A stretch of 64,000 bases of DNA, taken from assembly GCA_014360655.1 (NCBI GenBank), contig JACIXC010000001.1, positions 17,173-81,172 on the forward strand. The letters run 5' to 3'. The translations under genes were made by a program, and so were the position numbers. The DNA is from Actinomycetota bacterium. Its GTDB lineage: Bacteria; Actinomycetota; Geothermincolia; Geothermincolales; RBG-13-55-18. Shown here in pieces: positions 3,269 through 52,719 of this stretch (positions within the stretch are counted from its first letter, which is position 1; each line of letters starts with the position of its first letter). The notes beneath the pieces were generated by a model, which saw only the letters and a program-made list of their open reading frames with translations, made no database searches and was not told the DNA's origin.

Positions 3269-5821
3269 TCAGCTGGGAGCGTGGATTTCCGCCGGCTCCG
3301 GTCCGCCGGCCTCTTCGGATTCCCACTCCTCCCGCGGATGCGGCTTCCTGCGGGCGATGATGGTGATGATGGAGGGAAGCACCAGGAGGCTCGCCGCAAG
3401 GGAGACGGCCAGGGAAAGCGCGGTGATGAGCCCGAAACGGCGGATGGGGGCCATCTTGGAATAGGAGATGACCAGGAAGGCGCCGGCGGTGGAGGCCGCG
3501 CTGGCCAGGAGGGGTTTTCCCACGCGCATCACGGAGATGTCCAAGGCCTCCGCCACGCTAACCTCTTGCGGGGAGTATTCCTCCAGGAATCGGTGGGTCA
3601 CGTGGATGCCGTAGTCGATTCCCATGCCGATGATCATGGATGCCACCAGCACGGTCATCATGTCCAGTTCCCACCCCATGAGCGCCAGGAACCCCATCTC
3701 CACCGCCACCCCGGCCACCAGCACGGAGAGGGTGGCCAGCCCGTAGGTGACGGAACGGAAGATGAGGATGAGCACCAACCCGGAGAGCAGCAGAGCGAGG
3801 AGCGCCGTGCGCAACTGGGTGGGAACCAGGTTCCCCAGCAGATCGTAGGTGAGGGGGGTGATGCCTCCCACCTTGTATCCGATAGCGAGCGAGCCGAAGC
3901 AGTTCTCGGCCGCCTCCTTGAGGACGCGGTTCTTGTCTATGGCCTCCCGGTTGCTCCTGGCGCCCTCGCTGAACACGCTGATCAGGGCGGCCCGGTGATC
4001 GGCGGAGATCAGCTTGCCCTCCTGCGACCCGAAGAGCTCGCTGATGGTGGCGAGGTCCTCTTCCGCCTCCTTCGCCGTGGCCGGCAGGGAGGCGGCGTAA
4101 TCCGCTCCCGGCGCGGCCTTTCCCGTCTCCACGCGGAAATCCTGCAGCAGTTCCGCGAGGGTCGAGCTCCCGTTCTCCGTGAAATAGGGCGTGGATGCCA
4201 GTTCCTCCTGGAAGCGGCGCATGGCGGCCAGTACCTGGGGCTCCAGCACGTTTCCGGTCAGGAGCACCACGTCCTCCTGCTGTCCCCCGAAGATGCGCTC
4301 CTGCTCGTACTGGGCCTGCAGCGAGGGGATGTCCTGCGGGGCCAGGGCACGCAGGTCCGGGGTGGTGGTCAGGCGCAGGGAACCCAACACGCAGGCCAAG
4401 ACCACCAGAACATAGATGGCCACCACCGCGCGGGGGCGGTCCTGCGAAATGCCCGCGATCCTTCCCATGGCGCGGTCGATCCGCGAGCTTCCTCGCGACG
4501 AGAAGATGGCGACGCCGCGGGGAGCACGGCTTCCCTCCCGGCGCAACCTGCGGTCCTCGCGCAGGATCATGAGGGCGGGGAGGAAGGTCACGCTGAGCAG
4601 GAAACAGATGCCTATGCCCACCGCGCCCATGTAACCGAACTGCCGCATGACGTCGAAGTCGGAAAAATGAAAGCTCGCGAAACCGAAGAAGGTGGTGATG
4701 CAGGCCAGGAAGACGGCTACTCCGACGGTCACCACCGCGCGGTAAGCGGCGTCCCTCTGGTCCTTGCGCATGCCGAATTCCTCGTAAAAGCGGCTCATCA
4801 TGTAGACGAGGTTCCCCAGGCTGATCCCCAGCACCAGCGGCCCGATGACGGCGGAGAGCATGGTGTAGGGAACGTGCAGCCATCCCATGAGCCCGTATAT
4901 CCACATGGCGGACATGACGATCACCGCGAGGGGAAGGAAGATGTCTGTGAACCTCTGGAAGGTCATGTAAAGCAGGAGCATGAGCACCAGGACGGCGATA
5001 AGGGCCAGTACCCAGGTGCTCTCGAAGACGTAGTTCTCCAGGTCACGGTCTATGGAAGGGTCGCCGCTTATCATTACCCTTGCAGGTATCTCGCCGTCCT
5101 CGAAGTATCCGTGGAAGAAATCCTCGAACCTGCGGGCCGCCTCCCGCATCTCCTCCGTCTTCAGCATGGGGTTGACTTTGACCCAGATGGCGGCGTGCTT
5201 CCCGTCCGCGGAGAGGAGCGCGGAGCCCTCCTTCTCCACCGTCCACTTGCGTGCCACCGGGTTCGCCAAATACTGCGCGACCCCCTTCTCGATGGCCTCC
5301 TCAAAGGGGATGCTCCTCGCGGGGTCGTCGGGGTCGGGCACCGTGGTCCCCTCCGCGAAGCGCAGGATGGCGCCGATGTCGTTTATCAAAGGCCCGTAGG
5401 TCTTGCGCGCCTCGTTCAGGGCGTTCAGGGCGAACCCGGTGAGGAAATGCTCCATGTAGGTGTAATATTCCTCCCCCACCTCCGCTGCCATCTCCTTCTC
5501 GAGCAGGAGGAACTTCTTGATCATGGGGTAGGTGAGCAGGCGGTCGCTCTCCACCATGGGGATCTCGTAGACGGTGCCGCCGAAAAGCCGGTCCACTTCC
5601 TCGATGGTGCGCGAGGTCTCGAACTTGCTGGGGATGAGGTCCTTCTGGCCCGCCTTCACATCGATGAAGCCCATGCCCGCCGCCACCGGCAGGGTGAGGG
5701 CGATGCAGATAAGGACCACCGCGAGCGCATGATCGCGGCACAAGCGGGCGAAGAACTTCAACCTTCCATCCTCCTCCTGGCCTGTTCCCGTGCGGCGGGC
5801 AAATGCCTTGCCGCCATCCAC
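3269..5821 (-). CDS. MMPL/RND-superfamily membrane exporter (two 6-TM modules)
   Basis: 850 aa. Duplicated hydrophobic MMPL-type blocks separated by soluble loops; typical RND/MMPL length and topology. Confidence 0.85.
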   Translation of the reverse strand: MDGGKAFARRTGTGQEEDGRLKFFARLCRDHALAVVLICIALTLPVAAGMGFIDVKAGQKDLIPSKFETSRTIEEVDRLFGGTVYEIPMVESDRLLTYPMIKKFLLLEKEMAAEVGEEYYTYMEHFLTGFALNALNEARKTYGPLINDIGAILRFAEGTTVPDPDDPARSIPFEEAIEKGVAQYLANPVARKWTVEKEGSALLSADGKHAAIWVKVNPMLKTEEMREAARRFEDFFHGYFEDGEIPARVMISGDPSIDRDLENYVFESTWVLALIAVLVLMLLLYMTFQRFTDIFLPLAVIVMSAMWIYGLMGWLHVPYTMLSAVIGPLVLGISLGNLVYMMSRFYEEFGMRKDQRDAAYRAVVTVGVAVFLACITTFFGFASFHFSDFDVMRQFGYMGAVGIGICFLLSVTFLPALMILREDRRLRREGSRAPRGVAIFSSRGSSRIDRAMGRIAGISQDRPRAVVAIYVLVVLACVLGSLRLTTTPDLRALAPQDIPSLQAQYEQERIFGGQQEDVVLLTGNVLEPQVLAAMRRFQEELASTPYFTENGSSTLAELLQDFRVETGKAAPGADYAASLPATAKEAEEDLATISELFGSQEGKLISADHRAALISVFSEGARSNREAIDKNRVLKEAAENCFGSLAIGYKVGGITPLTYDLLGNLVPTQLRTALLALLLSGLVLILIFRSVTYGLATLSVLVAGVAVEMGFLALMGWELDMMTVLVASMIIGMGIDYGIHVTHRFLEEYSPQEVSVAEALDISVMRVGKPLLASAASTAGAFLVISYSKMAPIRRFGLITALSLAVSLAASLLVLPSIITIIARRKPHPREEWESEEAGGPEPAEIHAPS

Positions 5822-8925: not shown

Positions 8926-9912
8926 TCACAAGAGCGACATGCCCCTCTCTTCCTCCACGCGCCTCCTCAGCTCGCGCAGGTTATGCGCGCCCGGTTCCCT
9001 CTGCCCCCTTTCCAGCTCCCTCACCAGGGAGAGCAAGGCACCCGTCACTGGTGCCTTCAGGCCATGCTCGCCTGCCCTTTCCAGCAACCTCCCGCACAGC
9101 CATTCCACCTCCGTGGCGGACCCACGCATGACGTCACGCAGCATGGGCGGTCGCACGCGCCGCCACACCGCCGCTTCCCAGGGCGAATCCTCGACCGGCA
9201 GCTCCACGCCGTGCAACGCGGCCACCCGCGCGCACTCCTCCGCCGCCTCGCGCGCATAGAAGGCCAGCTCCTCGCGCCACTCCTCGCGCGAGCGGAGGCT
9301 CTCGGGCGCTTCCCCGCACAGGCCGCAAAGGCAGCTCACGCCGGCCGCGTCACGGACCCTCCGCCACAGCTCCGGGCGTATGTCCTCCCGCAATCCGACC
9401 GCCGTCACCCCAGGGCCACCCAGGGTTTCCGAAAGCGCCGCCAGGCGCGAGGCGTTGCCGCCCTCCCGCATGCCGCCCAGGATCAGGGAGCGCACCTCCT
9501 CCACCCACACCTCGCCCTCCTCTCCCTCCTCCGCCGAGAACCAGGGCGCCGCCGCCACCGCCCTTTCCGCGCCCACCATGGCGGCGAGCTCCTCCGCCGC
9601 GAAACCTTCCTGCAGGGAGAGGTAGAGGGTGTCGCGGTGGACGAAGGGGCTCAGCGGCCGCAGCGCGTCCCCGGAATCTCCCGCCTTGACCGCAAGGACG
9701 ATGAGGTCGAAGGGGGCGTCCGCCTCCCCGGGCGAGTGTACCGGCAGCCCCTCCGCGACCTCGAGCGCCCCACGAAGGCGAATGCCCCGCGCCGCCAGTT
9801 GCTCCCTCCTGTCCTCCCTCCTCTCGTAGAGGTGCACCTCGCTTCCTCCCGCATGCAGCAGGTGGGCCACGAGGCTGCCCGCGGCTCCCGCTCCGATGAC
9901 GGCGATCCTCAT
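8926..9912 (-). CDS. 2-dehydropantoate 2-reductase family oxidoreductase (ApbA/PanE-like)
   Basis: 328 aa. N-terminal MRIAVIGAGAAGS Rossmann motif, ApbA-family length and C-terminal domain. Confidence 0.75.
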   Translation of the reverse strand: MRIAVIGAGAAGSLVAHLLHAGGSEVHLYERREDRREQLAARGIRLRGALEVAEGLPVHSPGEADAPFDLIVLAVKAGDSGDALRPLSPFVHRDTLYLSLQEGFAAEELAAMVGAERAVAAAPWFSAEEGEEGEVWVEEVRSLILGGMREGGNASRLAALSETLGGPGVTAVGLREDIRPELWRRVRDAAGVSCLCGLCGEAPESLRSREEWREELAFYAREAAEECARVAALHGVELPVEDSPWEAAVWRRVRPPMLRDVMRGSATEVEWLCGRLLERAGEHGLKAPVTGALLSLVRELERGQREPGAHNLRELRRRVEEERGMSLL

Positions 9913-11873: not shown

Positions 11874-13076
11874 CTATTCTTCCTCCGCCTGCTCGGGAAC
11901 GGGCCCTCCCCCCGCGAGCAACCCGACGATGAGCAGCAGGGCCCCGACGATGAGCAGCGCCCAGGGGATGTACACTTTGATGAGGTTGATCCTTCCCGCG
12001 CCCTCCCTAGCGTCTTCCGCGTTCGCCACGATGGAGTCCTGGATGGACGCATAGTCGTAGGAGAACACCTTGCTGGCCTTCCCCATCTGCGACTGCAATC
12101 CCGCCAGTTGCGCGATGACCGGCCCCAGCTGGGGATCGCTCGCATACTTGGCCAGCACACCCTGCAATTGGGACATGCCGCTGAGGTCGACCCTCATGGA
12201 GAGGGCCTCCGCGCTCTTGTACACGTCCACCGGTATGCCCGTCTTGGGGTCGACGGAAAGTTCCTGTTCCATGCTCCAGAGATACGTGATGGGTATCTTC
12301 GCCTGCAGCGCGGCGCCGAGAACCTGCCGGTCCTCGGCGGACATGACCCCCATCGCCAGGGAAACGAAGGCGTCCACGTCCAGACCCGCCGCCTTGAGGG
12401 TTTCCTTCATCTCCTCGATGGTGGTTTCACGGGGAAGACCCATGCTCTCGATGTACGCGTCCACCACCGGTTTTTCCTCGCAGGACATCTTGAAGTCATA
12501 GACGGTTACGTGTTCCTTCTCCTGCTCGTCCACGTATTCCGCCTCCAGGCCCTCGCCGATCTCGCTCTTCCAGAATGAATAGGTCTCGTCCTTGGAGGTA
12601 TCGAAGGTGAAGAAGGGGTAATACGAGCCCTCGCGATTCACCGTGTTGCGCGGATCCCAGGCATAGGCGCGGTCATCCTTGACGTTCTCCAACGTCTTGC
12701 GGTCGAGGGCGTAGACGAACTCCGCCGCGGGTTGTTTCATCCCTCCCATGCTGATGGTTATGGTCTCCTTTACCAGTCCGGTGGAGGAGTCGAACTCCTC
12801 CGCAAGGGTGGTGATCTTTTGTGTCACCTCGAGGGGCGCCTTTATCTCCTGGCCTTCCGGAAGCGGCTGGCGGCTGACCGGGTCTACGTACCAGGTGACC
12901 TCACCCTCGTACCGGTTCTCCACGTCCACGTCGCTGGGCAACTTCACCATGGCGTTTACGGCGATCGCCCACCAGAGTATGGAGGCCAGTATGAACAGTA
13001 TCCCCAGGACTATCAGGACCTTGCTTACCGCCCCTTTCATGACTACCTCCTTAAACACCGAAAACCCTCGCCGCAC
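11874..13076 (-). CDS. Membrane-anchored protein with N- and C-terminal TM helices (DUF3068-like topology, tentative)
   Basis: 400 aa. N-terminal TM VLIVLGILFILASILWWAIAV and C-terminal TM IPWALLIVGALLLIVGLLAG flank a large acidic extracytoplasmic domain. Family assignment is from memory of DUF3068 architecture only. Confidence 0.55.
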   Translation of the reverse strand: MRRGFSVFKEVVMKGAVSKVLIVLGILFILASILWWAIAVNAMVKLPSDVDVENRYEGEVTWYVDPVSRQPLPEGQEIKAPLEVTQKITTLAEEFDSSTGLVKETITISMGGMKQPAAEFVYALDRKTLENVKDDRAYAWDPRNTVNREGSYYPFFTFDTSKDETYSFWKSEIGEGLEAEYVDEQEKEHVTVYDFKMSCEEKPVVDAYIESMGLPRETTIEEMKETLKAAGLDVDAFVSLAMGVMSAEDRQVLGAALQAKIPITYLWSMEQELSVDPKTGIPVDVYKSAEALSMRVDLSGMSQLQGVLAKYASDPQLGPVIAQLAGLQSQMGKASKVFSYDYASIQDSIVANAEDAREGAGRINLIKVYIPWALLIVGALLLIVGLLAGGGPVPEQAEEE

Positions 13077-13335
13077 GTCTTGGCGGCGGTACGCTCCGCA
13101 ACTCCATTCTTACTCCTAGTCTATTTTCTATGCCGCAAGCGGACTTTCCTCCGCTTGCCCATCCTCTCTCACGCTCCCGTTTCCGCCGCTCCTGCCGTTT
13201 CGTTTCATGTAGCGTTAAAGACGCTTTGAAAAGACCGTAAAGACACGGCATTATTTTACCCAAAGCGCGGCCCGAATTCCTCCCCGACTGTCTTCACTCC
13301 GGCAACCTCCCCATATACCAAGGCGGGCGGCCCGG

Positions 13336-13590
13336 CTTCCGGAAGAAGCACATATACGCAACCACCAAGCCCGGGGAACTACAGGGTCGGTCGCAGCGAG
13401 CCTGCGAGCGAGACCGTTACCCTGAGGCCCCGGGCCGGAAGAAGGTACATATACGCAACCACCTAGCCCGGGGAACTACAGGGTCGGTCGCAGCGAGGAC
13501 GCCTTTCCCAAGGCCTCGGATCTACGAGAAAGGAACGCGGCGCCGAGCGAGACCGTTACCCTGAGGCCTGGCCGCTGGAAGAAGGAAAGG
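13336..13590. repeat. Two tandem copies of a ~100-bp intergenic repeat unit (family shared with 22914-23285); second copy carries a 45-bp insertion
   Basis: Unit about ggaagaagg-acatatacgcaaccacc(a/t)agcccggggaactacagggtcggtcgcagcgag-cctg-cgagcgagaccgttaccctgaggcc. Copy 1 at 13336-13429. Copy 2 at 13430-13568, with an insert between gcagcgag and cgagcgagaccg. Confidence 0.7.
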
Positions 13591-13601
13591 CCGCGCACCT
13601 T

Positions 13602-15833
13602 TCAGCGCGACATCCCCGGGGCGTATCCGCAATTCACGTGTCCCCCCACCCAGGAGCCGTTATAACGGAAGTAGATGGGCCGCTCCACCACGATTTCCCC
13701 CGTGGCGTGCACGGAAACGGACATGCCTTCCTGGTAGGGCGACATGCTGTTCAGGTAGAGGGTGGTGCGCGAGGAGGCGGGCAGCCGCACCCTCTCCATC
13801 ATCAGCTCGCCGCTCTCGAAGTGCAGCATGATCTCGGCCGAAAGCTCCACCGCGCCAGCATTCTGCAGGCACAGCCAGTCCTCGAAGCCGGGCCCGGTGT
13901 AACCCTCCGCCAAATACCAGTGGCGGGAGGGCGCCTTCACGCCCACGAGCACGTCGCCGCCCTTGCACCACTTACCGTAATCGTGGTAGATGCTCCTCTC
14001 GGCCACGAAGGGCCTCTCCCCCTCCATCTTGACGGAGACCTCCAGGTTAGCCCCCGCGCGCAGGTTGACGTTCACCGTGCGCCTGGAGAGAGGGGGCACG
14101 ACCTCCTCGTCAGCGATGTTGGCCCCGTTTCTGGTCTGGTACGTGATGCGCACGCGGTTGGGCGCCGTATCGGGGTTGAACAGGCACAGCCACTCCTCGA
14201 AGCCGGCTCCCGTGTATCCCTCGGCGAAGTACCAGGTGGTGGAGGGTTGATTGCTGCCGCCCGAGACGTGTCCCCCCGCCCACTGGTTGCGGTAGAGGAA
14301 ATACATGGGGCGCTCCGCGACCAGCGGGACGCCGTTCGTGGAGGTCACCCGCAGGGAGACATCCTTTCCCGGTCCCACCTTTCCGTTGACGAAGACGCTG
14401 TAGCGCCGCCTGGGCGCCAGGGACATGTCCTCCGAGAGGAGCAGGCCGGCCGGTGAGAGGTACTCGACCCTCGCCTTCGCCTCCGTATTCCCCGGGTTGA
14501 GCAGGCACAGCCATTCATCGAAACCGTCGCCGGTGTGCCCCTCGGCGAAGTACCAGGTGGTGGAGGGTTGATTGCTGCCGCCCGAGACGTGTCCCCCCGC
14601 CAACCGGTTGCGGTAGAGGAAATACATGGGGCGCTCCGCCACGATGGGGAGCGGGGAATCCACCACCAGGCTCACGTCCCGCCCCGCGCCCACCTGTCCC
14701 CCAACGTTGATGCTCAGCCGCGCCTCGGCCTCCACGCGGTAGGTGCGTGTGAGCGCCTCCCGGTCCTGGAAGAGGTACTGCACGCTGAAGTCCACGGGCG
14801 TGCCGTTGGGATTGAGCACGGTGAGCCACTCCTCGATCCCCGCCCAGGTGGCCCCCTCCGCGAAATACCATTTTCTGGCAGCAGAGGCCACGATGAGGTC
14901 CCGCTCCACCGCGGCGGTGCCGCCATCGCCGTAGTAGGCCACGGCCCGCAGGCGGTGTGTGCCGTCCCCCAGCGACGCGGTGTCCACATTGGTGCTGAAG
15001 GGGGGACCGCCGAAGCTCCGCAACAGCCCGCCGTCGAGGAAGAGGTCCATCCGGCTTACGGCCTCCGCTCCCAGCACCTGTAGGGAGACGTTGACGACAC
15101 CGCTCGATATGCGGTTCTCCTGCGGCTGGATAAAGCTTACGCGCGAGGGCATGCGTATGCCGCGCAGGATGGCCATGGCCTCCCGCGCCAGGTAGGCGTC
15201 ATCGCGCAGCAGTCGCTCCTGCGCGGGATTGGAGATAAAGGAGGCCTCGGTGAGTATGGCCGGCATGTTGGTGTTGTTGAGCACGCCGCAGTAGCCCACC
15301 TTTTTCACGCCGCGGTTGGGCAGCCCGAACTCCCCCACCAGCTCCGCCTGCACGGAGTTGGCCAGCTCCAGGGAGGCCTGGCTGGCGTATGTGGAAACCA
15401 GGGTCTCGGTTCCGTTGACGTTCGGGTCGTCCGGGTAGGCGTTGTGATGGATGCTGATGAAGCGGTCGGCCCCCCAGGAGTTGGCCATCTGCCAGCGCTG
15501 GGTGATGCTCACCGCGACGTCGCTCTCGCGCGTCATGAGCACCTGGGCGCCGTTGGCCAGGAGCAGGTCACGCAGCCTTAGGGCCACCTTGAGGTTGACT
15601 TCCTTCTCCTGCAGGCCCGTGGGGCCCACCGCTCCCGTCTCCGCCCCGCCGTGCCCGGCATCCACGCAGAATTTCCAGCCGCTCAGGGCGCCGGCGAGGG
15701 CGCGTTCTTCCCCGGCGGGCAGGCGGAGAGCGAGCGGGGAGAGCAACGCCAGGGAAGCGAGAAGGAGGCAGAGCGGGGCTGCCATGGCGCGGGACGCCGC
15801 TTCTCCGCGCGGACGGATTCCTTTACGGTGCAC
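13602..15833 (-). CDS. N-acetylmuramoyl-L-alanine amidase (Amidase_3) with four C-terminal tandem ~108-aa WYFAEG modules
   Basis: 743 aa. Signal peptide. Amidase_3 motifs CVDAGHGG...RFISIHHNA...TEASFISN. Then four repeats, each starting WY(F/L)AEG.TG.GFE.WL.L.NP (aa 321-743, nt 13602-14873). Confidence 0.85.
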   Translation of the reverse strand: MHRKGIRPRGEAASRAMAAPLCLLLASLALLSPLALRLPAGEERALAGALSGWKFCVDAGHGGAETGAVGPTGLQEKEVNLKVALRLRDLLLANGAQVLMTRESDVAVSITQRWQMANSWGADRFISIHHNAYPDDPNVNGTETLVSTYASQASLELANSVQAELVGEFGLPNRGVKKVGYCGVLNNTNMPAILTEASFISNPAQERLLRDDAYLAREAMAILRGIRMPSRVSFIQPQENRISSGVVNVSLQVLGAEAVSRMDLFLDGGLLRSFGGPPFSTNVDTASLGDGTHRLRAVAYYGDGGTAAVERDLIVASAARKWYFAEGATWAGIEEWLTVLNPNGTPVDFSVQYLFQDREALTRTYRVEAEARLSINVGGQVGAGRDVSLVVDSPLPIVAERPMYFLYRNRLAGGHVSGGSNQPSTTWYFAEGHTGDGFDEWLCLLNPGNTEAKARVEYLSPAGLLLSEDMSLAPRRRYSVFVNGKVGPGKDVSLRVTSTNGVPLVAERPMYFLYRNQWAGGHVSGGSNQPSTTWYFAEGYTGAGFEEWLCLFNPDTAPNRVRITYQTRNGANIADEEVVPPLSRRTVNVNLRAGANLEVSVKMEGERPFVAERSIYHDYGKWCKGGDVLVGVKAPSRHWYLAEGYTGPGFEDWLCLQNAGAVELSAEIMLHFESGELMMERVRLPASSRTTLYLNSMSPYQEGMSVSVHATGEIVVERPIYFRYNGSWVGGHVNCGYAPGMSR

Positions 15834-20124: not shown

Positions 20125-22797
20125 TTACCCCGCTTCCGACCTCGCCTTCACGGCGCCCATTCTCCCCACCTCGCGGAACCGGCGCAGGCGCAACGAATTG
20201 CTCACCACCGAGACGGAGCTGAAGGCCATGGCCAACGCGGCGTAGACCGGGTTGAGCAGAACCCCCCACAGGGGATAGAGCACCCCCGCGGCCACGGGAA
20301 TGCCCACCACGTTGTAGAAGAAGGCCCAGAAGAGGTTCTGCCTGATGGTGCGCAGGGTGGCGCGGGAAAGGGTCACGGCGGCGGCTACCTTGCGCAGGTC
20401 GTCGGAGATAAGGGTGATGTCCGAGGCCTCCAGGGCCACGTCGGTGCCGCTCCCCACGGCTATGCCGATATCCGCCTGTGCCAGGGCGGGAGCGTCGTTG
20501 ATGCCGTCGCCCACCATGGCCACCACCCTGCCCTCGCCCTGCAGTCGCTCTATCTCCCGCGCCTTCTCCCCCGGAAGGACCTCCGCCAGGACCCGCTCCA
20601 CCCCCGCCCGGCGCGCAACCGCCTGCGCGGAGGAGAGCCGGTCCCCGCTGAGCATGGCCACCTCGATCCCCAGCGCGCGCAGGGCACGCACGGCCTCCAC
20701 AGCCGTGTCCTTGAGCGCATCGGTAACCGCCACCAGCCCCCAGAGTTCTCCGTCCAGGGACACGTAGACCACCGTCTTGCCCTCACGCGACAGCCTCTCC
20801 GCCTCTCCCTCGAGACCGCGCGTGTCCACGCCGTTTTCGGACAGGAAGGCGGAGTTGCCCAGCAAAGCCCTCGCGCCACGCCAGGCGGCAGCCACCCCCT
20901 TACCTGGAAACGCCTGGAAATCGGATGCCTCTCCCGGGGTTATCCCCCTCTCTTCGGCTTCCCGCACCATGGTCTCCGCCAGCGGGTGCTCACTCCCCCG
21001 CTCCACGGTGGCCGCCAGGAATAGCAGCTCCTCCTCGCTCCTCCCCTCCGCGGCGAGGAGGTCGCTCACCTCGGGCCTTCCCCGCGTTAGGGTCCCCGTC
21101 TTATCGAAGACCACGGTATCAAGCCTGCCGGCTCTCTCCAGCACCTCTCCTCCCCTGATGAGAATCCCCATCTCCGCGCCCTTCCCCGTGCCCACCATGA
21201 TGGCGGTAGGAGTGGCCAGCCCCAGGGCGCAGGGGCAGGCGATGACCAGTACGGCCACGAAGTTGAGGAGGGCGAAGTTGAAGGACGGCTCCGGTCCCGC
21301 CAGCAACCAGGCCAGGAAGGTCACCGCCGCCATACCCATGACCGCGGGGACGAAGACGGCGGCCACCCTGTCTGCCAGGCGCTGCACGGGCGCCTTGCTG
21401 CCCTGCGCCTCCTCCACCAGGCGTATGATCTGCGCCAGCACCGTGTCCCCTCCCACCCGCGTCGCCCGGAAGCGGAAGGAGCCGGTGCCGTTGATGGTAG
21501 CCCCGGTGACCTCGTCGCCGGGCCCCTTCTCCACCGGAAGCGGCTCGCCGCTCAGCATGGACTCGTCAACGCTGCTGCGGCCTTCCAGGACCACACCGTC
21601 CACGGGGATCTTCTCGCCGGGCCGCACCACCACGACATCCCCCACCTTTACCTCCTCCACCGGGATCTCGACCTCTCCATCGTCCCTGACCACCCTCGCG
21701 AGGCGGGCACGCAGGCCCATGAGGCGCCTTATGGCCTCCGAGGTGCGCCCCCTCGCCCTTGCCTCCAGGAAGCGCCCCAGCAGGATGAGGGCGATGATGG
21801 TGGCGGAGGCGTCGTAGTAGACCGCAAGCTCGAGACCGGTGCCGCTGATGAAAGAGGGGAAGAAGGTCGCCACCACGCTGTAGGCGTAGGCGGCGGTGGT
21901 CCCCACCGCTATGAGTGTGTTCATGTCCGTGGTCCCATGGCGCGCCGCCCGCAAGGCCGCGCGATAGAAGGTCAGGCCCGGCCCGAACTGCACCGGCGTG
22001 GCCAGGGCGAAGAGCAGGTAGAAGAGGGTCCGCTCGGGGATATCCCTCAGTCCCGGGAGGTGCATGCCGAGCATGGACAGGAACATGATCACCGCGGCCG
22101 ATGCCAGGCTGTAGATGAGCTTCGCCCGCAACACGCGGCCCTCCCTCTCGCGGCGCCGCCTCTCGCGGTCGAGGGGTTCCTCTCCCTCGCCGGGAGGCAG
22201 CAGCCTGTATCCCGCCGCCTCCACGGTGCGGGCCATCTTCTCGTAAGAAGCGATTGCGGGGTCGAAGACGACGGCAGCCCTCTCCGTGGCCAGGTTGACG
22301 TCCGCGCTCATCACCCCCTCCACCCCGCCGAGGGCCTTCTCCACGCGCGCCACGCAGGAGGCGCAGGTCATGCCCTCCACGCCGAAGACCGCCTTCTCCA
22401 GCCCTGCCCGGTAGCCCAGCTCCTCTATGACCTTCGCCATCCCTTCCGCGCTCACCTTGTTGGGCTGGTAGGATATGGTAGCTTTCTCGGAAGCCAGGTT
22501 CACGGACACCTCCTCCACCCCCGGCAGGTCCCTGAGGGCCTTCTCCACCCTGGCGGTGCAGGAGGCGCAGGTCATGCCGCCCACCCTGATGACCAACCGG
22601 GAGGCGTCACCACCGCTCCCGCTCTCTGCCTTCTCCCCGCCCGCGGCGACTTGCTCTTCTTGCTCCTCGCTCCCGACCCCTGTGCGCTTCATCTCCATCA
22701 TCTCCAGACCCGCTCGCGCCACGCCTCCGTGAGCCCCCGGAAGCAGACTCAGAATCCCTCTTCCGCTCAACTCCCGCTTTTCAAGCGCGACTTCCAA
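20125..22797 (-). CDS. copA: Copper-translocating P1B-type ATPase with two N-terminal HMA domains
   Basis: 890 aa. Two GMTCASC heavy-metal-associated motifs. TM CPC motif ([12 protein letters not shown]). DKTGTLT phosphorylation site. GDGINDAP hinge. Confidence 0.9.
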
Positions 22798-22913: not shown

Positions 22914-23285
22914 CCGGGCGGGACCGCTACCCTGAGACCTCGGCCCGGCCTCCTTATACGCTCCCACCAAGGCCGGGAACGACCGGGTCGGTCGCAGCGA
23001 GCCTCTACTGAACCACCCACACAGGCCGGGTCCGGGGGTCGGGTGAGCGACATCGCAAGCGGCCTCAGGACGAGGAAGGTAGATGATGAACCCTTGCATG
23101 GATGGAGCCCCTGCATGAAGAGGGGAGACCATCGTGAGGCCGCGCGTCGCGGAGCGAGCACGAAACCCCGGCCCGGCCTCCTTATACGCTCCCACCAAGG
23201 CCGGGAACGACCGGGTCGGTCGCAGCGAGCCTGCGAGCGAGACCGTTACCCGGCGGCCCGGCCGCCGGAAGAAGGACGGGCGTCA
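22914..23285. repeat. Second locus of the ~100-bp repeat family (two copies, first carries a ~150-bp insertion at the same internal site)
   Basis: tccttatacgctcccaccaaggccgggaacgaccgggtcggtcgcagcgagcc at 22951-23003 and 23178-23232. Copy 2 continues tgcgagcgagaccgttacccggcggcccggccgccggaagaagg. Copy 1 is interrupted after gcagcgagcc by 23004-23150. Lies in the divergent region between copA and the UPF0104 gene. Confidence 0.7.
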
Positions 23286-23341: not shown

Positions 23342-24460
23342 ATGGGCGAGGAACAACCCTGCGACACGGGCGGAAGCACCGGCCGCTCTCGGAGGCGGCG
23401 GGGCCTTATCATGGCCGTCTCCCTCTCCGCCGCCACCCTCATCGTCATCTCCCTGGTCACCCTGGACAGGGCGACGTTCAGCGCCCTCTCCAACCTCTCC
23501 CCCGGCTTCCTGCTCCTCGCCGTCGCCCTCTCCCTCGGGCGCTGGCTGTGGGCGGTGCTGCGCATGCGCCTGCTCATAAGCTGGGCGGGAAAGAGCGTGC
23601 CCGTACGGAACGTCGCAAAGACGGTGTACGCGGGCTATTTCACCGGCCTCATCACGCCCTGGAGGGCGGGCGGGGTAACGGGGGAGATGTTCTTCCTTTA
23701 CGTCTACGGGCTGGGGGCAGGGGAGGGGGTGGCCGTGGTCTCCTTCGGCGCCTGCGTATCCACCGTGCTGCTCATGCTCTTCTTCCCCTTCGCCATATGG
23801 ATAGCACGCAGCCACATCGCCCTCTCCGTGTCCGTGCAGGGGGTACTCTTCTCGGCCCTGGCCGTGGGGCTGCTTTACCTGGCCCTTGTGCTGTGGGCCC
23901 TGCTGCGGCCACAGAGCGCCTTGGACAAGACGCTCCTCGCGCACTCGCCCGCGTTCCTGCGCAGGCGGGAGCGGTACCGCCGCTTCCTGGAAAGGCTCGC
24001 TTGCGAGATCCAGTCCTTCACGCTGTCCCTGCGCCGCCTGGTCCGCCTGGGAAAAGCAAGGCTGTCGGCCGTGGTGCTCCTGACGGCGCTTTACTGGCTG
24101 ACGGGATTCCTGGCCGTCCCGGCGGCGGTGGTCGGCCTGGGCTATGCTTCCTATTTCTGGAAGGCGCTGGTGGCGCAGCTGGTGGTGCACATCCTCATGC
24201 CCTTCGTGCCCACCCCCGGCGGGAGCGGGATAGGCGAGATAGGGTTCCTCTACGTGTACAAGAGCGTTCTGCCCGACCTGGGCCTCGCCGCGCTGCTCAC
24301 CCTCATCTGGCGCTTCATAGACTTCTATCTCGGTCTGCTGGTGGGCGGCGGGGCCTTCCTGCTCGTCATGCGGGATTTCAACCGCTCTCCGAGCCGCGCC
24401 GCCGCGGACGCGCAGCTCGCGGCGCCGCGCGCCGGCGAGGAGACCTCCAAGGCGGGTTGA
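23342..24460 (+). CDS. UPF0104/LPG-synthase-TM (flippase-like) integral membrane protein
   Basis: 372 aa. About 8 TM helices. Motifs typical of the flippase-like TIGR00374 family (RWLWAVLRMRLL, GYFTGLITPWRAGG). Confidence 0.65.
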   Translation: MGEEQPCDTGGSTGRSRRRRGLIMAVSLSAATLIVISLVTLDRATFSALSNLSPGFLLLAVALSLGRWLWAVLRMRLLISWAGKSVPVRNVAKTVYAGYFTGLITPWRAGGVTGEMFFLYVYGLGAGEGVAVVSFGACVSTVLLMLFFPFAIWIARSHIALSVSVQGVLFSALAVGLLYLALVLWALLRPQSALDKTLLAHSPAFLRRRERYRRFLERLACEIQSFTLSLRRLVRLGKARLSAVVLLTALYWLTGFLAVPAAVVGLGYASYFWKALVAQLVVHILMPFVPTPGGSGIGEIGFLYVYKSVLPDLGLAALLTLIWRFIDFYLGLLVGGGAFLLVMRDFNRSPSRAAADAQLAAPRAGEETSKAG

Positions 24461-26871: not shown

Positions 26872-26916
26872 GCTTACCCCCTCCCTTTCACGGCGCTCTT
26901 ACCCTTCCCTGCCTCT

Positions 26917-28527
26917 TCACAGGTAATCCTCGGCCCGGTAGACGTTTTCCGCCTGCGGCGAAAACTCCTCGCGCAGCACCCGGTCCAGGTACTTCTCCGA
27001 GGCGCTCTTGGGAATCTCTTCCACCACCTGCAGGTAACTCGGGACGGCGTTCTTCTCCAGGCCCTCGGCGGCCTTCCTGAACACGGAAGCGGGATCGATG
27101 GAGCGGCCCTCGAAGGGAGCCACCGCGGCGACCAGGTCGCTCTCCCCGGGAGCCCCGGAGGAGGCCGGTATGCCGTATACGCACACCTCGGACACGTCGG
27201 GGTGCTCCCCGATGACCTTCTCCACGTAGGAGGGGATGATGAACTCGCCCTGGCGCCGCAGCCCCCCTCCCTCCTTGCGGTAATCGAAGAAGAGCCAGCC
27301 TTCCTCGTCGCGGTGGACCATGTCGCCGGTGCGCAGCCAGCCCCCCCGCGTCTTCGCCGCAGAGTCCTCGGGTCTCCCGTGGTACTCCACCTCGGGCTTC
27401 TGAGTGACCGCCCGCATGAGCAGCTCACCGGTGACGAAGGGCGGCACCTCGTTGTCGTTCTCGTCCACGATCCTGTACTCCATGAGCCCTTCGATGGGCT
27501 TGCCGAAGGAGCCTACGGGGCCCTGGTCGATTGGCTTGTAGGCGAAGCCTCCCTCCACCGCCCCGTACCATTCCAGTATCTTCACGTTGAAGCGCTTCTC
27601 GAAGTCCTCCCAGATGGCCACGGGGGTGCCCGCGGAGATGACCACCTCCACGGGGTTGTCCGCGTCGTCCGGCCGCGGCGGCTCGTTGTAGATACCGGAC
27701 ATCATGCCCCCCAGGAGGGAAAAGGTGGTGCAACCGTAGCGCCGGCATATGTCCCAGATGCGGCTCTTGGTGAAGCGCTGGCTGATCACCGCCCGGATGC
27801 CCAGGGCCAGGGCGGACATCATGGTCACCGCCTGGGCATTGCCGTGGGTGAGGGAAAGGCCGGTGTAGAGGATGGAGTCCTCCGTGTATCCCCACACCAT
27901 CCTGGCGAGGGCGGTGTACATCAACGTGCGCGACGCCTTGATGACCACTCCCTTGGGGTTGCCGGTGACCCCCGAAGTGTAGATTATTTCCATGGGGAGG
28001 TTCGGGTCATCCACCCTGCCTTCAAGCTCGTAGATGTCCGGGCCGTCCACCAGCTCGTTCACGGTGGGATACTTCGTGGCCAAAGAAAGGTCGGCATCCG
28101 GTTTAAGGTTGAGCCAGATGCGCTCAATCCCCGGCAGGGTTCTCGCCTGCGCCTCCACCTCCGGCAACAGGTCGGCGGTGGTGATCACGGCCCTGGCCCT
28201 GCAGTCACCCAGCATGTAGGCGAGCTTCTCGCCCCGGGATCGAGGGTCTATGGGCACCGCCACGTAGCCGAGCAGGTTGGCGGCCGCCATGGCGTAGACC
28301 ATCTCAGGGTGGTTGCGCATGACCAGGGCCACGGCATCCCCCTTGCCTATGCCGCTCTCCCGCAGGCCCCTGGCCACCTTGAAGGTGTTGGCCACCAGCT
28401 GGCGGTAGGTCAGGGGCTCGTCACGGTAAAGCCCGCCGTTCTCGAAGACCAGCCCCACGAACTCGGGCTTCTCCTCCATGCGCATCTCCATCTGGTGAAA
28501 GATGAGCGCGGGGTTTTTCTCCTCCAT
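26917..28527 (-). CDS. AMP-dependent acyl-CoA synthetase (paralog A)
   Basis: 536 aa. YTSGVTGNPKGVV AMP-binding motif. About 75% aa identity to 31458-33197 with about 100-bp near-identical DNA blocks. Confidence 0.85.
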   Translation of the reverse strand: MEEKNPALIFHQMEMRMEEKPEFVGLVFENGGLYRDEPLTYRQLVANTFKVARGLRESGIGKGDAVALVMRNHPEMVYAMAAANLLGYVAVPIDPRSRGEKLAYMLGDCRARAVITTADLLPEVEAQARTLPGIERIWLNLKPDADLSLATKYPTVNELVDGPDIYELEGRVDDPNLPMEIIYTSGVTGNPKGVVIKASRTLMYTALARMVWGYTEDSILYTGLSLTHGNAQAVTMMSALALGIRAVISQRFTKSRIWDICRRYGCTTFSLLGGMMSGIYNEPPRPDDADNPVEVVISAGTPVAIWEDFEKRFNVKILEWYGAVEGGFAYKPIDQGPVGSFGKPIEGLMEYRIVDENDNEVPPFVTGELLMRAVTQKPEVEYHGRPEDSAAKTRGGWLRTGDMVHRDEEGWLFFDYRKEGGGLRRQGEFIIPSYVEKVIGEHPDVSEVCVYGIPASSGAPGESDLVAAVAPFEGRSIDPASVFRKAAEGLEKNAVPSYLQVVEEIPKSASEKYLDRVLREEFSPQAENVYRAEDYL

Positions 28528-31301: not shown

Positions 31302-31457
31302 CGGGCCGGTGCTCCTCCCCTTCGACAGGTCGTGACCGTAGGAGCTCCTCCCGCGTCTCCCGCGCATGCCGCCAGGGGTGGCAGGGGCCGGCCTCCCGCC
31401 TTGGGAACCCGCCTCCCGCTGGGAGGCTCTCGCCGGAGGTGCGGCGCGCTTTCCCCC

Positions 31458-33197
31458 TCAGGCGTAATCCTCCAGGCGGTAGACGTTTTCCGCGTCGGGA
31501 CGGAAAGCCTCGCGCAGGAGGCGGTCCAGGTGCTTCTCCGAGGGGCTCTTGGGAATATCTTCCACAACCTGCAGGTAACTGGGCACGGAGTTACGCTCCA
31601 GGCCGGCCAGGGCCGCCTTGAAGACGGAATCCGGGTCTATACTGCGGCCTTCGAAGGGGACCACCGCCGCCACCAGGTCACTCTCGCCCGGTGCGCCAGA
31701 GGCCGCCGGGATGCCGTAGACGCACACCTCTGAGACGTCGGGGTGTTCCCCGATGACCTTCTCCACCAGGTCGGGCTTGATGAAGTCGCCGGCCCGCCGC
31801 AGCGCTCCTCCCTTGCGGTAGTCGAAGAAGAACCACCCCTCCTCGTCACGGTGCACCATGTCCCCGGAGCGCAGCCAGCCGCCCCGCATCTTCTCCGCCG
31901 AGGCCTCCGGTTTCTTGTAGTAATCCACCTTGCTCTGCGTGAGCATGCGGCAGATGAGCTCGCCGGTCACGCCGGGAGGCACTTCGTTGTCCTCCTCGTC
32001 CACCACTTTCATCTCCACCAGCCCGGGAAGGGGCTTTCCGAAGGACCCTATTGGGCCCTTGCCGATGGGCCGGTAGGCGAAACCGCCCTCGATGGCCGCG
32101 TACCACTCGAGGATCTGGACGCCGAAGCGCCGCTCGAAATCCTCCCATATGGCCCGCGGGGTTCCCGCCGATACCACCATGCGTACCGGGTTGTCGGCGT
32201 CGTCCGGGCGCGGCGGCTCGTTGTAGATCCCGGACATCATGCCCCCCAGGAGGGAGAAGGTGGTGCATCCGTAGCGGCGGCACACATCCCATATGCGGCT
32301 CTTGGTGAAGCGCTGGCCTATCACCGCCGGGATGCCCATGGCCAGCGACGGGAAGAGGGTGACCGCCTGGGCGTTCCCGTGCGCCAGGGAAAGCCCGGTG
32401 TAGGGGATGTCGTCCTCCCGGTAGCCCCAGACTATGTACCCGAGCAGGCAGTACATGGCGTTGCGGCGCGAGTCCAGTGTGACCCCCTTGGGGTTGCCCG
32501 TCACCCCGGAGGTGTAGATGATCTGCACCGGGGCGGAGGGGTCACCGGCCGCCCCCTCCGGCTCCCGCGGCGGGTTCCCCTCCAGCATCTCGTTGAGCGT
32601 GGGGTAACGCGAGGCGAGGGAGGGGTCGGCATCCGGCTTCAGGTTCAGGTAGATCTTCGGCGAGGCCGAGACGCTCCTCGCCGCCGCCTCCACCTCCGGC
32701 AGGAGGTCAGCGGTGGTGACCACGGCCCTGGCGTCGGAGTCCGCCAGCTGGTAGGCGAGCTTCTCTCCCCTGGCGCGGGGGTCGATGGGCACCAGCACCG
32801 TGCCCAGCAGGCTGCAGGCGGCCAGCGCGTAGACGAACTCGGGGTGGTTGCGCATGACCAGGGCCAGTTTGTCCCCCTTCTCGAACCCCTCGCGCCGCAG
32901 CCCCTCCGCCAGACGCAGGGACCGGGAGTAGAGCTGCGCGTAGGTCAGCCTCTCGTCCTCGTAGAGACCTCCGTTCTCGAAGATGAGCCCGGTGCGGTTG
33001 GGGCTCTCCTCGGCGCGTTGCGCGAGGAGCCCGGAAAGCAGCCCCCTGTGCCGGGGCAGCCTGGTTTCCGCCACCCCGCGCACGGCGCGGGAGACCAGGT
33101 CGACGTGGGCCAGGAACTTGAGCGCCATGTATAGCCTGGGATTTTTTTCCTCCAGCTTTTTCAGGGCCGGCTTATCGAAGATCTTATCCAGATCCAT
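31458..33197 (-). CDS. AMP-dependent acyl-CoA synthetase (paralog B)
   Basis: 579 aa. YTSGVTGNPKGVT motif. Shares long identical peptide runs with paralog A (IYNEPPRPDDADNPV, KVIGEHPDVSEVCVYGIPA.SGAPGESDLVAAV). Confidence 0.85.
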   Translation of the reverse strand: MDLDKIFDKPALKKLEEKNPRLYMALKFLAHVDLVSRAVRGVAETRLPRHRGLLSGLLAQRAEESPNRTGLIFENGGLYEDERLTYAQLYSRSLRLAEGLRREGFEKGDKLALVMRNHPEFVYALAACSLLGTVLVPIDPRARGEKLAYQLADSDARAVVTTADLLPEVEAAARSVSASPKIYLNLKPDADPSLASRYPTLNEMLEGNPPREPEGAAGDPSAPVQIIYTSGVTGNPKGVTLDSRRNAMYCLLGYIVWGYREDDIPYTGLSLAHGNAQAVTLFPSLAMGIPAVIGQRFTKSRIWDVCRRYGCTTFSLLGGMMSGIYNEPPRPDDADNPVRMVVSAGTPRAIWEDFERRFGVQILEWYAAIEGGFAYRPIGKGPIGSFGKPLPGLVEMKVVDEEDNEVPPGVTGELICRMLTQSKVDYYKKPEASAEKMRGGWLRSGDMVHRDEEGWFFFDYRKGGALRRAGDFIKPDLVEKVIGEHPDVSEVCVYGIPAASGAPGESDLVAAVVPFEGRSIDPDSVFKAALAGLERNSVPSYLQVVEDIPKSPSEKHLDRLLREAFRPDAENVYRLEDYA

Positions 33198-48197: not shown

Positions 48198-48317
48198 ACA
48201 AGAAACCGACCTCTATGTGAAGAGGCCGGTTTCACTGTTAGCTCCCGGCGGCTCCCGAGTGACCAAACTACAAGCCGCCTTTCAAAGCTTCCTCTTGCTC
48301 TTTAGATAATTCTAACA

Positions 48318-48485: not shown

Positions 48486-49784
48486 CTACGGGCGACGAAG
48501 CTTCTCGTAGACGGGGTTGGGGTGGAAGGGGTCGAGGCGGTAGTAACCGCCCGCGATGTCCATCTTCAGCTGCTGGGGCACGGCGTCCAGGAGATGCAGG
48601 GTGCGCGCGTCCCTCCAGTACTTCTCCACGTGGTAATCGGTCACGTACCCGTAGGAGCCCATGAGCTCCATGGCCCGGTTGGTGACCTCCACCGCCGCAC
48701 GGCCGCAATGATGCCTCGCCATGGAGGCGCGGGAGAGCACCGCGGGAGAGGAGCGTAGGCCTTTCTCCGCCTGGTCGAAGACGCGCGCCGCGCAGGCGTA
48801 GGCATCCCTTCCCGTCTGGATGGCGGTGGCGATGTCCGCCAGTATGCAGGCGCAGACGCTGTGCTGGCGGATGGGCTTCCCGGCCGCCAGGCGCTCGCTG
48901 GTGAAGTCCAGCACCTCCTCGAAGGCACCCTGGGCCACGCCCACGCACGATGCCGCCCCCAGCAGGCGGGAAAAGGCCAGGTTGTCCAGGAGTATCTCGG
49001 CGTCCTCTTCCGGCCCAGCCGCCCTATCGGAAAGGGGAACCCTTACCCCCTCCAGCCGTATGTCCCCGAAGGACGCGGAGAGCAGTCCCGCTGTCTCCCG
49101 GCGGCCCAGGAAACGGAAACCCTCGTCCGTCGCCTCGCAGTAGACCAGGACCAGGCCTTCCCTCCCGCGGGAGGGGTCCTCGCCGGCTGTGACGCAATAG
49201 ATGCCCGCCTGGCCCGCGTTCGGGCACCAGACCTTGCCGCCGTGCAGCTTCCAGCCCCCCTTGGCCCGAACCGCCTTCGTTTCCAGGTTCGATCCCAGCA
49301 GCGCGACGTTCAGGACATCCCCGGTGGCGGGCTCTTCGTGGACGGCCAGGCAACCCTGGCGGATCTCCTCGCTGCGCGCAAAATGCGGGGAGAAGCGGCG
49401 CAGAAGCTCTTCGTTGCCGGCCAGAACGGCCGGCCGCAGGGCCAGTATCGTCCCCGCCACCACCTGGAAGAGGGAGGCGTCCCCGCGGCTCACCTCCTCC
49501 GCCGCCAGGGCCAGGGTGAGGGCCGACCCCAGGCCCGAGCCCCCGTACTCCTCGGGCAGCACCCCGCCGGGAAGGCCCAGCGGCTGAAGCTTGCGCAGCA
49601 GCCCGTTAAGGAGCGACCGCGATCCCGCCCTCGCCTCCCGGTCCAGCTCCCTCCTCACCGGCATGACCTCCCGGTCGACGAATTCCCTGAGGGATTCCAT
49701 GAGCATGTGGTCCTCTGGCCCCAGGAGATCCGCGACGAAACGTCCTGCGCCGTTTTCCGGTGATGTCCGGGCCATCCTGCTCAC
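48486..49784 (-). CDS. Acyl-CoA dehydrogenase-like protein, catalytic-base motif divergent (RDARTLHLLDAVPQQ)
   Basis: 432 aa. ACAD fold. Position of IYEGT reads LLDAV. Confidence 0.75.
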   Translation of the reverse strand: MSRMARTSPENGAGRFVADLLGPEDHMLMESLREFVDREVMPVRRELDREARAGSRSLLNGLLRKLQPLGLPGGVLPEEYGGSGLGSALTLALAAEEVSRGDASLFQVVAGTILALRPAVLAGNEELLRRFSPHFARSEEIRQGCLAVHEEPATGDVLNVALLGSNLETKAVRAKGGWKLHGGKVWCPNAGQAGIYCVTAGEDPSRGREGLVLVYCEATDEGFRFLGRRETAGLLSASFGDIRLEGVRVPLSDRAAGPEEDAEILLDNLAFSRLLGAASCVGVAQGAFEEVLDFTSERLAAGKPIRQHSVCACILADIATAIQTGRDAYACAARVFDQAEKGLRSSPAVLSRASMARHHCGRAAVEVTNRAMELMGSYGYVTDYHVEKYWRDARTLHLLDAVPQQLKMDIAGGYYRLDPFHPNPVYEKLRRP

Positions 49785-52634: not shown

Positions 52635-52719
52635 TGGTGCCCGGGGCGGGAGTCGAACCCGCACGGGATAACCCGAGGGAGTTTAAGTCCCTTGTGTCTA
52701 CCGGTTCCACCACCCGGGC
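52635..52719 (-). tRNA. tRNA-Leu (anticodon UAA), type II with long variable arm
   Basis: Minus-strand sequence GCCCGGGTGGTGGAACCGGTAGACACAAGGGACTTAAACTCCCTCGGGTTATCCCGTGCGGGTTCGACTCCCGCCCCGGGCACCA. 7-bp acceptor stem. Anticodon loop CTTAAAC. GGTTCGACTCC T-arm. Encoded CCA. Closely resembles E. coli leuZ. Confidence 0.85.

Follow-up and report, generated by a model that had tools for sequence, protein, structure and literature searches.

Correia elements exist in a long and a short size class, which differ by an internal segment, and ERIC copies with internal insertions at fixed sites exist, as do shorter deletion forms. Correia elements measure about 104-157 bp, ERIC, an imperfect palindrome of about 127 bp located between genes, is transcribed and influences the fate of the mRNA, and SPRITE is a repeat resembling a Rho-independent terminator; many small repeats of this kind are co-transcribed and affect mRNA stability (PMC3184786). 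Most REPs are located downstream of ORFs, in spacers whose genes are unidirectional or convergent, and their transcription is plausible (PMC3733652). They are clustered in mosaics, are conserved across species, and have been proposed to act as RNA hairpins, as terminators or as stabilisers; their superfamilies are defined by GTAG and CGTC tags, which are unpaired at one end of the palindrome (PMC3733652).

Here, we describe two intergenic loci in a 64-kb stretch of DNA (the window, i.e. the whole stretch that was analysed). According to our analysis, with a probability of roughly 55%, both loci are arrays of an undescribed family of modular, rod-forming palindromic repeats, probably mobile and similar to REP, Correia and ERIC elements. 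The repeats have a conserved fold, are dispersed beside unrelated genes, are gained and lost between relatives, and are mostly positioned just past stop codons. Each unit starts with a short linker, followed by a hairpin of three covarying helices (P1, P2 and P3), an invariant purine-rich core of tandem G·A pairs and an optional apical hairpin, P4. The rods are 67-110 nt long and the units 97-144 nt. A second, paralogous type of unit (type II) has the same outer frame as type I, and units are found singly, in head-to-tail series or inside the apex of another unit. The features in the window are the following.

11874-13076, minus strand: PorA/DUF3068 gene, flanking locus A.
13321-13332, plus strand: 5' strand of a predicted outer helix, AGGCGGGCGGCC, pairing with 13589-13600 in both the RNAfold MFE and centroid structures.
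13352-13448, plus strand: short-form unit A1 of type I (92.6 bits with covariance model R1, E 5.6e-28; rod also predicted by folding), with linker ACATATACGCAACCACC, rod 13369-13435, apex CCTG and tail CCGGAAGAAGG.
13449-13592, plus strand: unit A2 of type I, in the standard long form (110.2 bits with covariance model R1, E 1.1e-33; rod also predicted by folding); the 3' strand of P1 is partly degenerate.
13498-13544, plus strand: apical hairpin P4 of unit A2; 50 of 61 members have a segment of 43-50 nt here.
13589-13611, minus strand: small hairpin over the amidase stop codon (13602-13604), then CTTTCCTTCT; a terminator-like match.
13602-15833, minus strand: Amidase_3 gene, flanking locus A, with its stop codon at 13602-13604.
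20125-22797, minus strand: copper P-type ATPase gene, flanking locus B.
22916-22950, plus strand: degenerate type I 3' half, GGGCGGGACCGCTACCCTGAGACCTCGGCCCGGCC, carrying the 3' core with 3 mismatches; left edge of locus B.
22954-23004, plus strand: orphan type I 5' half with an exact 5' core, then linker CTACTGAACCACCCACAC; part of repeat D17.
23024-23178, plus strand: type II unit ("big element"), with P1 GGCCGGG/CCCGGCC, core GGGGGTCGGGTGAGCGACATCGCAAGCGGCCTC ... GAGGCCGCGCGTCGCGGAGCGAGCAC and a variable apex of about 70 nt; it has homologues elsewhere and folds as its own rod, with the outer helices kept.
23182-23282, plus strand: short-form unit B2 of type I (83.4 bits with covariance model R1, E 5.3e-25), with rod 23199-23263, apex CCTG and tail CCGGAAGAAGG.
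23342-24460, plus strand: LPG_synthase_TM gene, flanking locus B.

Among the known elements, the Correia elements of Neisseria (NEMIS/CREE) resemble the new family. They are also intergenic imperfect palindromes of about 100-155 bp with a long and a short class, they are often located at the 3' ends of genes, where they are co-transcribed into long RNA hairpins, and their presence varies among close strains. However, Correia elements end in defined inverted repeats and duplicate a TA target, features that are not demonstrated for our family. They are not known to be arranged as direct tandem arrays or to nest inside the apex of another copy, and they belong to one genus, while the core described here is invariant across much deeper divergence. 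ERIC/IRU of enterobacteria is likewise an intergenic imperfect palindrome but has no sequence relation to the units described here, and ERICs are mostly solitary, unlike the present arrays with their second, paralogous unit type. The BOX elements of Streptococcus pneumoniae resemble the family in being modular, with a variable number of tandem internal modules, and SPRITE, from the same species, in that the rod of several of our lineages is followed by a U tract when read on the strand of the upstream gene. Both differ in sequence and host, and the copies in the window lack a clear U tract.

The sequence-only reading had described two head-to-tail units between the amidase and a DUF3068-like gene, and a recurrence of the family at 22914-23285; we find the former at 13352-13592 and the latter at 22916-23282. 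The 17-nt 5' core, GGGTCGGTCGCAGCGAG, has four exact occurrences in the window (0.8 expected from shuffles at up to 3 mismatches), and the 3' core, GAGCGAGACCGTTACCC, has three exact occurrences and a degenerate one, compared with 0.27 expected. With the filters off, the covariance model retrieves only the known copies from the 64 kb, at 110, 93, 83 and 23 bits, and the next match has 13 bits. The 23-bit match (22954-23087) is the orphan half, which scores this low because no 3' half follows it. A repeat finder recovers the same repeat pairs (D13, D17, D19). The outer helix formed by 13321-13332 and 13589-13600 is predicted, by folding only, to close the entire array of locus A; its 3' strand is also contained in the small minus-strand hairpin at 13589-13611.

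Locus B contains two copies of a 71-nt segment, 97% identical and spaced by 228 nt (D17): the orphan 5' half is 97% identical to the 5' half of unit B2, and the end of the degenerate 3' half is found again at 23162. Local duplication therefore does add to the growth of the arrays, and it is the point in favour of a mere duplication remnant, or a chance resemblance, at these two loci. The sequence-only reading had named two loci without conserved structure as the case against its own proposal. This account is refuted, and hardly any weight can be given to it: there are at least about 70 further copies, found in at least seven species-level MAGs of uncultured Actinomycetota and in 31 metagenome contigs, and they share a conserved fold.

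These copies were found in two ways. A scan of species-representative genomes with the 17-mer gave at least 120 matches, most of them by chance; among the matches listed there are at least 20 loci with both halves, in at least seven MAGs labelled uncultured Actinomycetota or actinobacterium. A more specific pattern retrieved the 31 metagenome contigs. The copy numbers are underestimates, because the arrays break assemblies. Orthologues of the flanking PorA are labelled Candidatus Geothermincolales or Solincola in the source records, and the family is, as far as sampled, limited to a clade of uncultured Actinomycetota around these two groups.

No match to the repeats was found in Rfam 15 at the gathering score, where the window gives only a tRNA and a c-di-GMP-II riboswitch, both located elsewhere; at E-values up to 10 the two loci gave only noise of at most 23 bits, far below the gathering scores. 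Four chance matches to the 17-mer were seen in viral contigs, none of them matched by the covariance model, and blastn against plasmid and phage collections gave no match. In the literature we found no paper with the core sequences and none combining Geothermincolia with "intergenic". The family itself appears to be undescribed; the kind of element is well known.

When the copies are folded one by one with RNAfold, nearly all of them give this rod, with a stability of about -40 to -65 kcal/mol on either strand. From the base upwards, it consists of P1 (GCCCGRG/CYCGGGC), a small internal loop with AA..A opposite G, P2 (YRGGGT/ACCCYR), a TT bulge, P3 (CGGTC/GRCCG), the core, with GC-AGC-GA-G opposite C-GA-GC-GA, and P4. 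In a model-based alignment of 68 matches, which was fitted to the model so that its pairing figures are inflated somewhat, 89% of the cells are paired, compared with 37-42% when the partners are slid by 1-3 columns. Changes on both sides are seen in 19 of the 29 pairs of this alignment (one pair, for example, is CG in 25 copies, GC in 23, UA in 8 and AU in 6), and none of 500 shuffles reaches any of the observed pairing measures. The register of P2 and P3 is independent of the model, since the invariant cores fix it directly. The fold is thus conserved and its apical domain variable, which supports this part of the sequence-only reading.

The bulges (TT and A) and the core are asymmetric between the two arms, and this asymmetry is conserved, which argues for selection on a folded single strand and not on equivalent double-stranded terminal repeats. 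The core has 34 nucleotides that are invariant across deep divergence, including genomes whose PorA orthologues are only 44% identical. A k-turn consists of a C stem, a 3-nt bulge, tandem sheared G·A and A·G pairs, and an NC stem. On the plus strand only, the sequence of the core fits this pattern, with G43-C105 and C44-G104 (columns of alignment A1) as a GC/GC C stem, an AGC bulge, G·A and A·G pairs, a G-C pair and P4 as the NC stem. Unlike in a k-turn, the C stem would have only 2 bp before a GA bulge, and no L7Ae-type partner is known in these genomes. RNAfold offers an alternative with two tandem G·A internal loops at a similar predicted energy, and covariation cannot choose between the two, because all positions of the core are invariant.

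To describe the apex, we extracted 61 distinct units from the MAGs and metagenome contigs and measured the distance between the two cores. It is 43-50 nt in 50 of them (mode 46), 5-9 nt in nine and longer in two. The long form with P4 is the standard, and the short form with CCTG is a minority variant. Unit A2 is indeed longer than unit A1, as had been noted (47 vs 5 nt between the cores), but the 45 bp by which it was said to differ are not an insertion; the polarity is reversed, given that most units carry a segment of this size. Close homologues of the P4 of unit A2 are present in L134 and L144. Short and long forms are found in one and the same genome in the case of the window, L134, L119 and L137, and in L104 (position 5321) one copy has both cores fused at a shared GCGAG.

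A copy in locus B had been described as interrupted at the same position by a different insert of about 150 bp. This "insert" is a paralogous type II unit and not foreign DNA at a target site. The locus starts with the degenerate 3' half, followed by the orphan 5' half, a complete type II unit with its own closing helix, and a complete short unit. The composite of an orphan type I 5' half, CTNACTGAAC and a type II unit is common to the window, L132 and L156. Close homologues of the type II unit are located at the plus-strand 5' start of arrays in L056, L058, L132, L145, L156 and L158/L159, and distant ones are found in L075, L023, L090 and L146; the lineages with distant homologues include CAYWXM, CAZGWK and Ga0272444. 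In the alignment of type II units across lineages the apex aligns poorly, and the support is for the outer helices only. In L014 the nesting is reversed, with a type I unit inside a type II apex. The apex varies by loss of P4 and by nesting of family members, for which the direct GCGAG repeats flanking the apex are a plausible cause. Nothing suggests that foreign DNA has been inserted there at a target site. An alternative register, 3' half, linker and 5' half, which gives "spacers" of 4, 45 and 150 nt, was rejected, as isolated single units have the 5' half first.

Head-to-tail units with a variable segment between conserved parts could also suggest repeat-spacer arrays, either CRISPR-like or ToxI-like. 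However, P4 is identical or near-identical within arrays and across the loci of one genome, the units are 97-144 nt long, while CRISPR repeats are short (23-55 bp), have unique spacers and are usually near cas genes, and no cas or toxin gene was seen beside any array. The earlier exclusion of CRISPR is therefore upheld, and repeat-spacer arrays of either kind are extremely improbable.

The genes beside the arrays were called by a GC3-based script, which reproduces the genes of the window and is heuristic outside it unless checked with Pfam; 22 flanking ORFs were scanned with Pfam. The flanking genes are unrelated to each other, including GYD, GMP synthase, an Mtr4-like helicase, GAF-HD, metallo-beta-lactamase, hydrolases and TadE, and no neighbouring gene is conserved among the arrays. 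A link to envelope genes, proposed earlier, is not supported, as these flanking genes are diverse housekeeping genes.

The placement relative to these genes follows a rule. About 16 arrays have their plus-strand 3' end next to the stop of an oppositely oriented gene, compared with two co-directional cases, and for four cases the genes are verified with Pfam. The gap between stop codon and array is usually 4-20 nt, adjoining modules counted. Locus A obeys the rule, with the amidase stop codon at 13602-13604, and locus B breaks it, being located between divergent genes. About 12 of the spacers are between co-directional genes with the array antisense, three between co-directional genes with the array sense, two are convergent and six divergent. 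The reverse complement of the arrays is almost certainly transcribed as 3' UTR, judging from their start just past stop codons. For the same reason, most copies would be co-transcribed, and their stable hairpins may act as terminator-like barriers at 3' ends or between cistrons, as REP, Correia, ERIC and SPRITE do. A counterpoint to a role in 3' UTRs is that about a quarter of the arrays, including locus B, have divergent genes on their two sides, so that transcription reading through from a gene would not be expected. A coding function was rejected by inspection: the periods of 97, 137 and 139 nt are not multiples of 3, and the ATG found in some lineages is not conserved.

The evidence on the strand conflicts, as folding favours the plus strand and placement the reverse complement. 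The plus strand folds better in 51 of 57 units, by a mean of 3.6 kcal/mol, and P4 alone does so in 40 of 46. P4 has 1-5 G·U pairs on the plus strand and 0-1 on the reverse complement, while in P1-P3 the counts of G·U and A·C (31 vs 26) are uninformative. The G·A core is a known stable motif on the plus strand only; G·T and tandem G·A pairs are stable in DNA too.

A Rho-independent terminator is a G+C-rich stem with a U tract directly behind it on the transcribed strand. In five lineages (CAYWXM, CAYPZH, CAYHAT, Ga0315277 and Ga0272444) the plus strand has an A tract, TATAAAAAA, just before the rod begins, so that the reverse complement has a U4-U7 tract 2-6 nt after the base of a G+C-rich rod. 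Read on the strand of the gene with the stop codon, the rod base is followed by a U6 tract in several lineages. There is no clear U tract after the rods in the window, where only the minus-strand hairpin at 13611-13590 scores as terminator-like. We rejected TATAAAAAA as a promoter, since there is no hexamer with a conserved final T and no -35 element, and the U tract of the opposite strand fits better. Pairing between the pyrimidine tract of P4 and the tail GGAAGAAGG as a loop-tail kissing interaction was also rejected as a general feature: the native energy is -8.1 kcal/mol, compared with -8.4 for cross-genome pairs and -7.9 for shuffled tails. This interaction is strong in one lineage.

A possible, though unlikely, alternative to mobile palindromic repeats is that the arrays encode a true structured non-coding RNA, read from the plus strand, with type I domains in tandem behind a type II domain. 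Such an RNA would agree with the strong covariation, with the asymmetric core that is invariant over deep divergence, with the better folding of the plus strand and the concentration of G·U pairs of P4 on it, and with the k-turn pattern, read from the sequence, on this strand only. In addition, distant lineages have kept both of the paralogous unit types, and the type II unit is located at the plus-strand 5' end of the array, 110-250 nt from a divergent gene, which leaves space for a promoter. However, no promoter or terminator is conserved on the plus strand; a single promoter-like match (9/12) is located 100 nt upstream of locus A, and there is none at locus B. Further, the positions are non-syntenic between relatives, copies within a genome are near-identical, as in recently spread repeats, and short forms without P4, orphan halves and degenerate copies are common. 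Most arrays are also antisense to a gene and abut its 3' end, and there is no relative in Rfam. If the arrays were such RNAs, which we doubt, the k-turn-compatible G·A core would tentatively be a repeated site for an RNA-binding protein, and the RNA a scaffold, a sponge or a source of processed unit RNAs. It is a rather doubtful extension of this idea that the family is a new class of multi-domain RNA, in which each domain offers a k-turn-like G·A module to a putative conserved protein and the apparent mobility is rapid birth and death of RNA genes or RNA-mediated copying, not the work of a DNA transposon.

The gain and loss of arrays can be followed at syntenic sites. The spacer between the amidase and PorA is occupied in the window and in relatives at 88% and 81%, with different composition, and it is empty in a relative at 68%. 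In the 88% and 81% relatives it contains a type II unit and arrays, and the contigs break inside the arrays. The spacer between the copper ATPase and the LPG synthase, 544 nt in the window, is also occupied in relatives at 99% and 89%, and in the 81% relative it is 131 nt long and empty. The site of locus A is empty in L160/L161 and that of locus B in L164/L165 and L166. Conversely, L090 is syntenic with 14.6-22.3 kb of the window and has units between the TPR and amidase genes, in a spacer that is empty in the window. This presence and absence at syntenic sites implies that the arrays turn over. In metagenome Ga0078972 six units on three long contigs have an identical P4, which implies recent spread. 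Turnover and identical P4s are what characterises a repeat with gains, losses and recent copying. The MITE- or REP-like behaviour that the sequence-only reading had listed among its options is thus borne out by repeats that are dispersed between genes, beside unrelated neighbours, and present or absent at syntenic sites.

It is rather improbable that the units are sites of folded single-stranded DNA moved by a hairpin-specific recombinase, comparable to REP/RAYT, the ends of IS200/IS605 or attC, with any effect on RNA being incidental. The imperfect hairpin, with its conserved extrahelical bases and variable terminal structure, would suit such an enzyme. The same is true of the motif CTAC (GTAG on the opposite strand), found beside P2 in the P1-P2 internal loop of most lineages (CGAC in locus B of the window), and of CGTC, which begins the 5' linker in the CAYWXM, CAYPZH and CAZGWK lineages and is absent there in the window. 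The arrays tend to be on the strand opposite to the flanking genes, which fits a bias tied to the direction of replication. However, no Y1 transposase or integrase was found near any array. Among the 22 flanking ORFs, Pfam identified no transposase, integrase or other candidate mobilising gene, and a tblastn search with two Y1 transposases over 438 kb gave no match; both are weak tests. The GC skew is negative on the plus strand throughout the window, so the plus strand carries lagging-strand sequence. Enzymes of the IS200/IS605 type use the lagging-strand template, and this is not the better-folding strand in the window. The units are also 3-5 times longer than REPs. As for integrons, attC sites have the cores RYYYAAC (R'') and GTTRRRY (R'), gene cassettes between them and intI nearby; GTTACCC differs at two positions from the R' core, and the units adjoin each other with no cassettes or ORFs between them.

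In our preferred reading as mobile palindromic repeats, the units would be non-autonomous elements when they spread, or would use recombination between their own repeats. Their asymmetric and invariant core may be the recognition site of a putative conserved protein that acts on the folded single strand, and loss of P4 and nesting could occur by illegitimate recombination between the direct GCGAG repeats flanking the apex. The 34 invariant nucleotides of the core, the two unit types, the nesting in the apex and the placement at stop codons together point to this putative protein partner. The invariant core and the retention of two paralogous unit types exceed what is usual in decaying selfish DNA, a counterpoint to this reading. 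Further counterpoints are that the Pfam and tblastn searches gave no mobilising gene, that no clear target-site duplication was seen, and that the strand evidence conflicts.

If this reading is right, a poorly known class of uncultured actinobacteria gains a well-defined repeat family with a covariance model, which would account for the assembly breaks at particular spacers in these organisms and could serve as a marker for strain typing and for tracing genome rearrangements. It would also mean that long-hairpin repeats of the Correia and ERIC kind exist beyond Proteobacteria and Firmicutes. The partner protein could reveal a new route of mobilisation for hairpin repeats, or a new RNA-protein module.

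The assignment to a known class can be examined for REPs and MITEs. The family resembles REP/BIME in its placement downstream of ORFs (about 16 arrays abut a stop codon), its clustering and its CTAC/GTAG and CGTC motifs. However, a REP is one short palindrome, of 20-40 bp, whose tag is terminal, and REPs are often in alternating orientation and are linked to RAYT, while the present units are 97-144 nt long, always direct within an array and have tag-like motifs that are internal, never at the end of a short palindrome; no RAYT was found in the 438 kb and the 22 flanking ORFs searched. The family is thus outside the strict definition of REPs by its size, and probably also by the position of the tag-like motifs. 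As for MITEs, the whole unit is an imperfect palindrome, and presence and absence at orthologous sites is seen; no clear case of a target-site duplication was observed, and at the loci examined there is no autonomous parent insertion sequence with the same ends. When the empty site of L164 is compared with the filled one in the window, GCGCYGG is possible at both junctions of locus B, in spacers too diverged to align. The outer ends CACTTCCCGAGACCCGG and CCCCGGTCTCGGGAAC, which occur in some lineages, each belong to a type II unit as one of its halves, and the A-rich flanks in CAYWXM may belong to the element.

A conserved motif, CCCGGGTGTCGCC-TATAAAAAA-CAC, is found within the arrays of repeat units or on their 5' side in several lineages. 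The sites, in the stretches of other genomes and metagenome contigs that we compared with the window, are:

L075, 4400-4420 and 4745-4765: CCCGGGTGTCGCC-TATAAAAAA-CAC
L090, 1525-1550: CCCGGGTGTCGCC-TATAAAAAA-CAC
L119, L104, L024, L027, L038, L140 and L150: CCCGGGTGTCGCC-TATAAAAAA-CAC

Read on the other strand, the motif is a U tract located 2-6 nt past the base of the rod, the hairpin formed by the unit, and it is therefore terminator-like in that orientation. After the motif comes a strand, CACTTCCCGAGACCCGGTAACGG, with perfect complementarity to the following unit's 3' half, so that two mutually exclusive pairings are possible.

In one lineage (L125, L132, L135, L136, L145) the arrays are closed by a distinct conserved hairpin module, CTTGCGGGGGATGGGTGCGGCGAAGGCCCGTCCAGAGGGCCGAGATGCCCTCCATCCCCAGGAACGA, which occupies the place of a further unit, for example on the minus strand of L145 at about 9300-9400. 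In L014, a nested unit has on its upstream side an A+T-rich island, ATTATATATAACTTATTACTAGTTAATTAATTACTATAATT (4640-4720, about 80 nt), while the rest of the genome has 62-65% G+C. In L075, a convergent ORF of 369 aa, called heuristically, has its stop codon inside the 3' half of a type II unit, CCGCTACCCC (about 4905-4912), i.e. the repeat appears to supply the end of the coding sequence.

In close relatives (L156, L157, L158, L159, L162, L163) contig ends fall inside the arrays, at locus A as well as at locus B. Short-read assemblies are interrupted by the repeats, whose copy number is consequently underestimated in MAGs.

The window also contains other repeated sequences. The Amidase_3 gene next to locus A (13602-15833, minus strand) harbours a 315/321-nt repeat in three to four tandem copies (13857-14870), which probably encodes a repeated DUF5719/Big_7-like domain. 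Two gene-sized paralogous pairs are present, 26912-28476 with 31453-33011 (offset 4535 nt, 71-82% identity) and 48764-49731 with 50139-51100 (offset about 1370 nt, about 70% identity); this suggests that they are duplicated genes in tandem clusters.

Two RNA features were identified in the window, the first with 49.2 bits (gathering score 40) and the second found by both ARAGORN and Rfam:

48215-48301, minus strand: c-di-GMP-II riboswitch aptamer, GAG variant (RF03169)
52635-52719, minus strand: tRNA-Leu(TAA)
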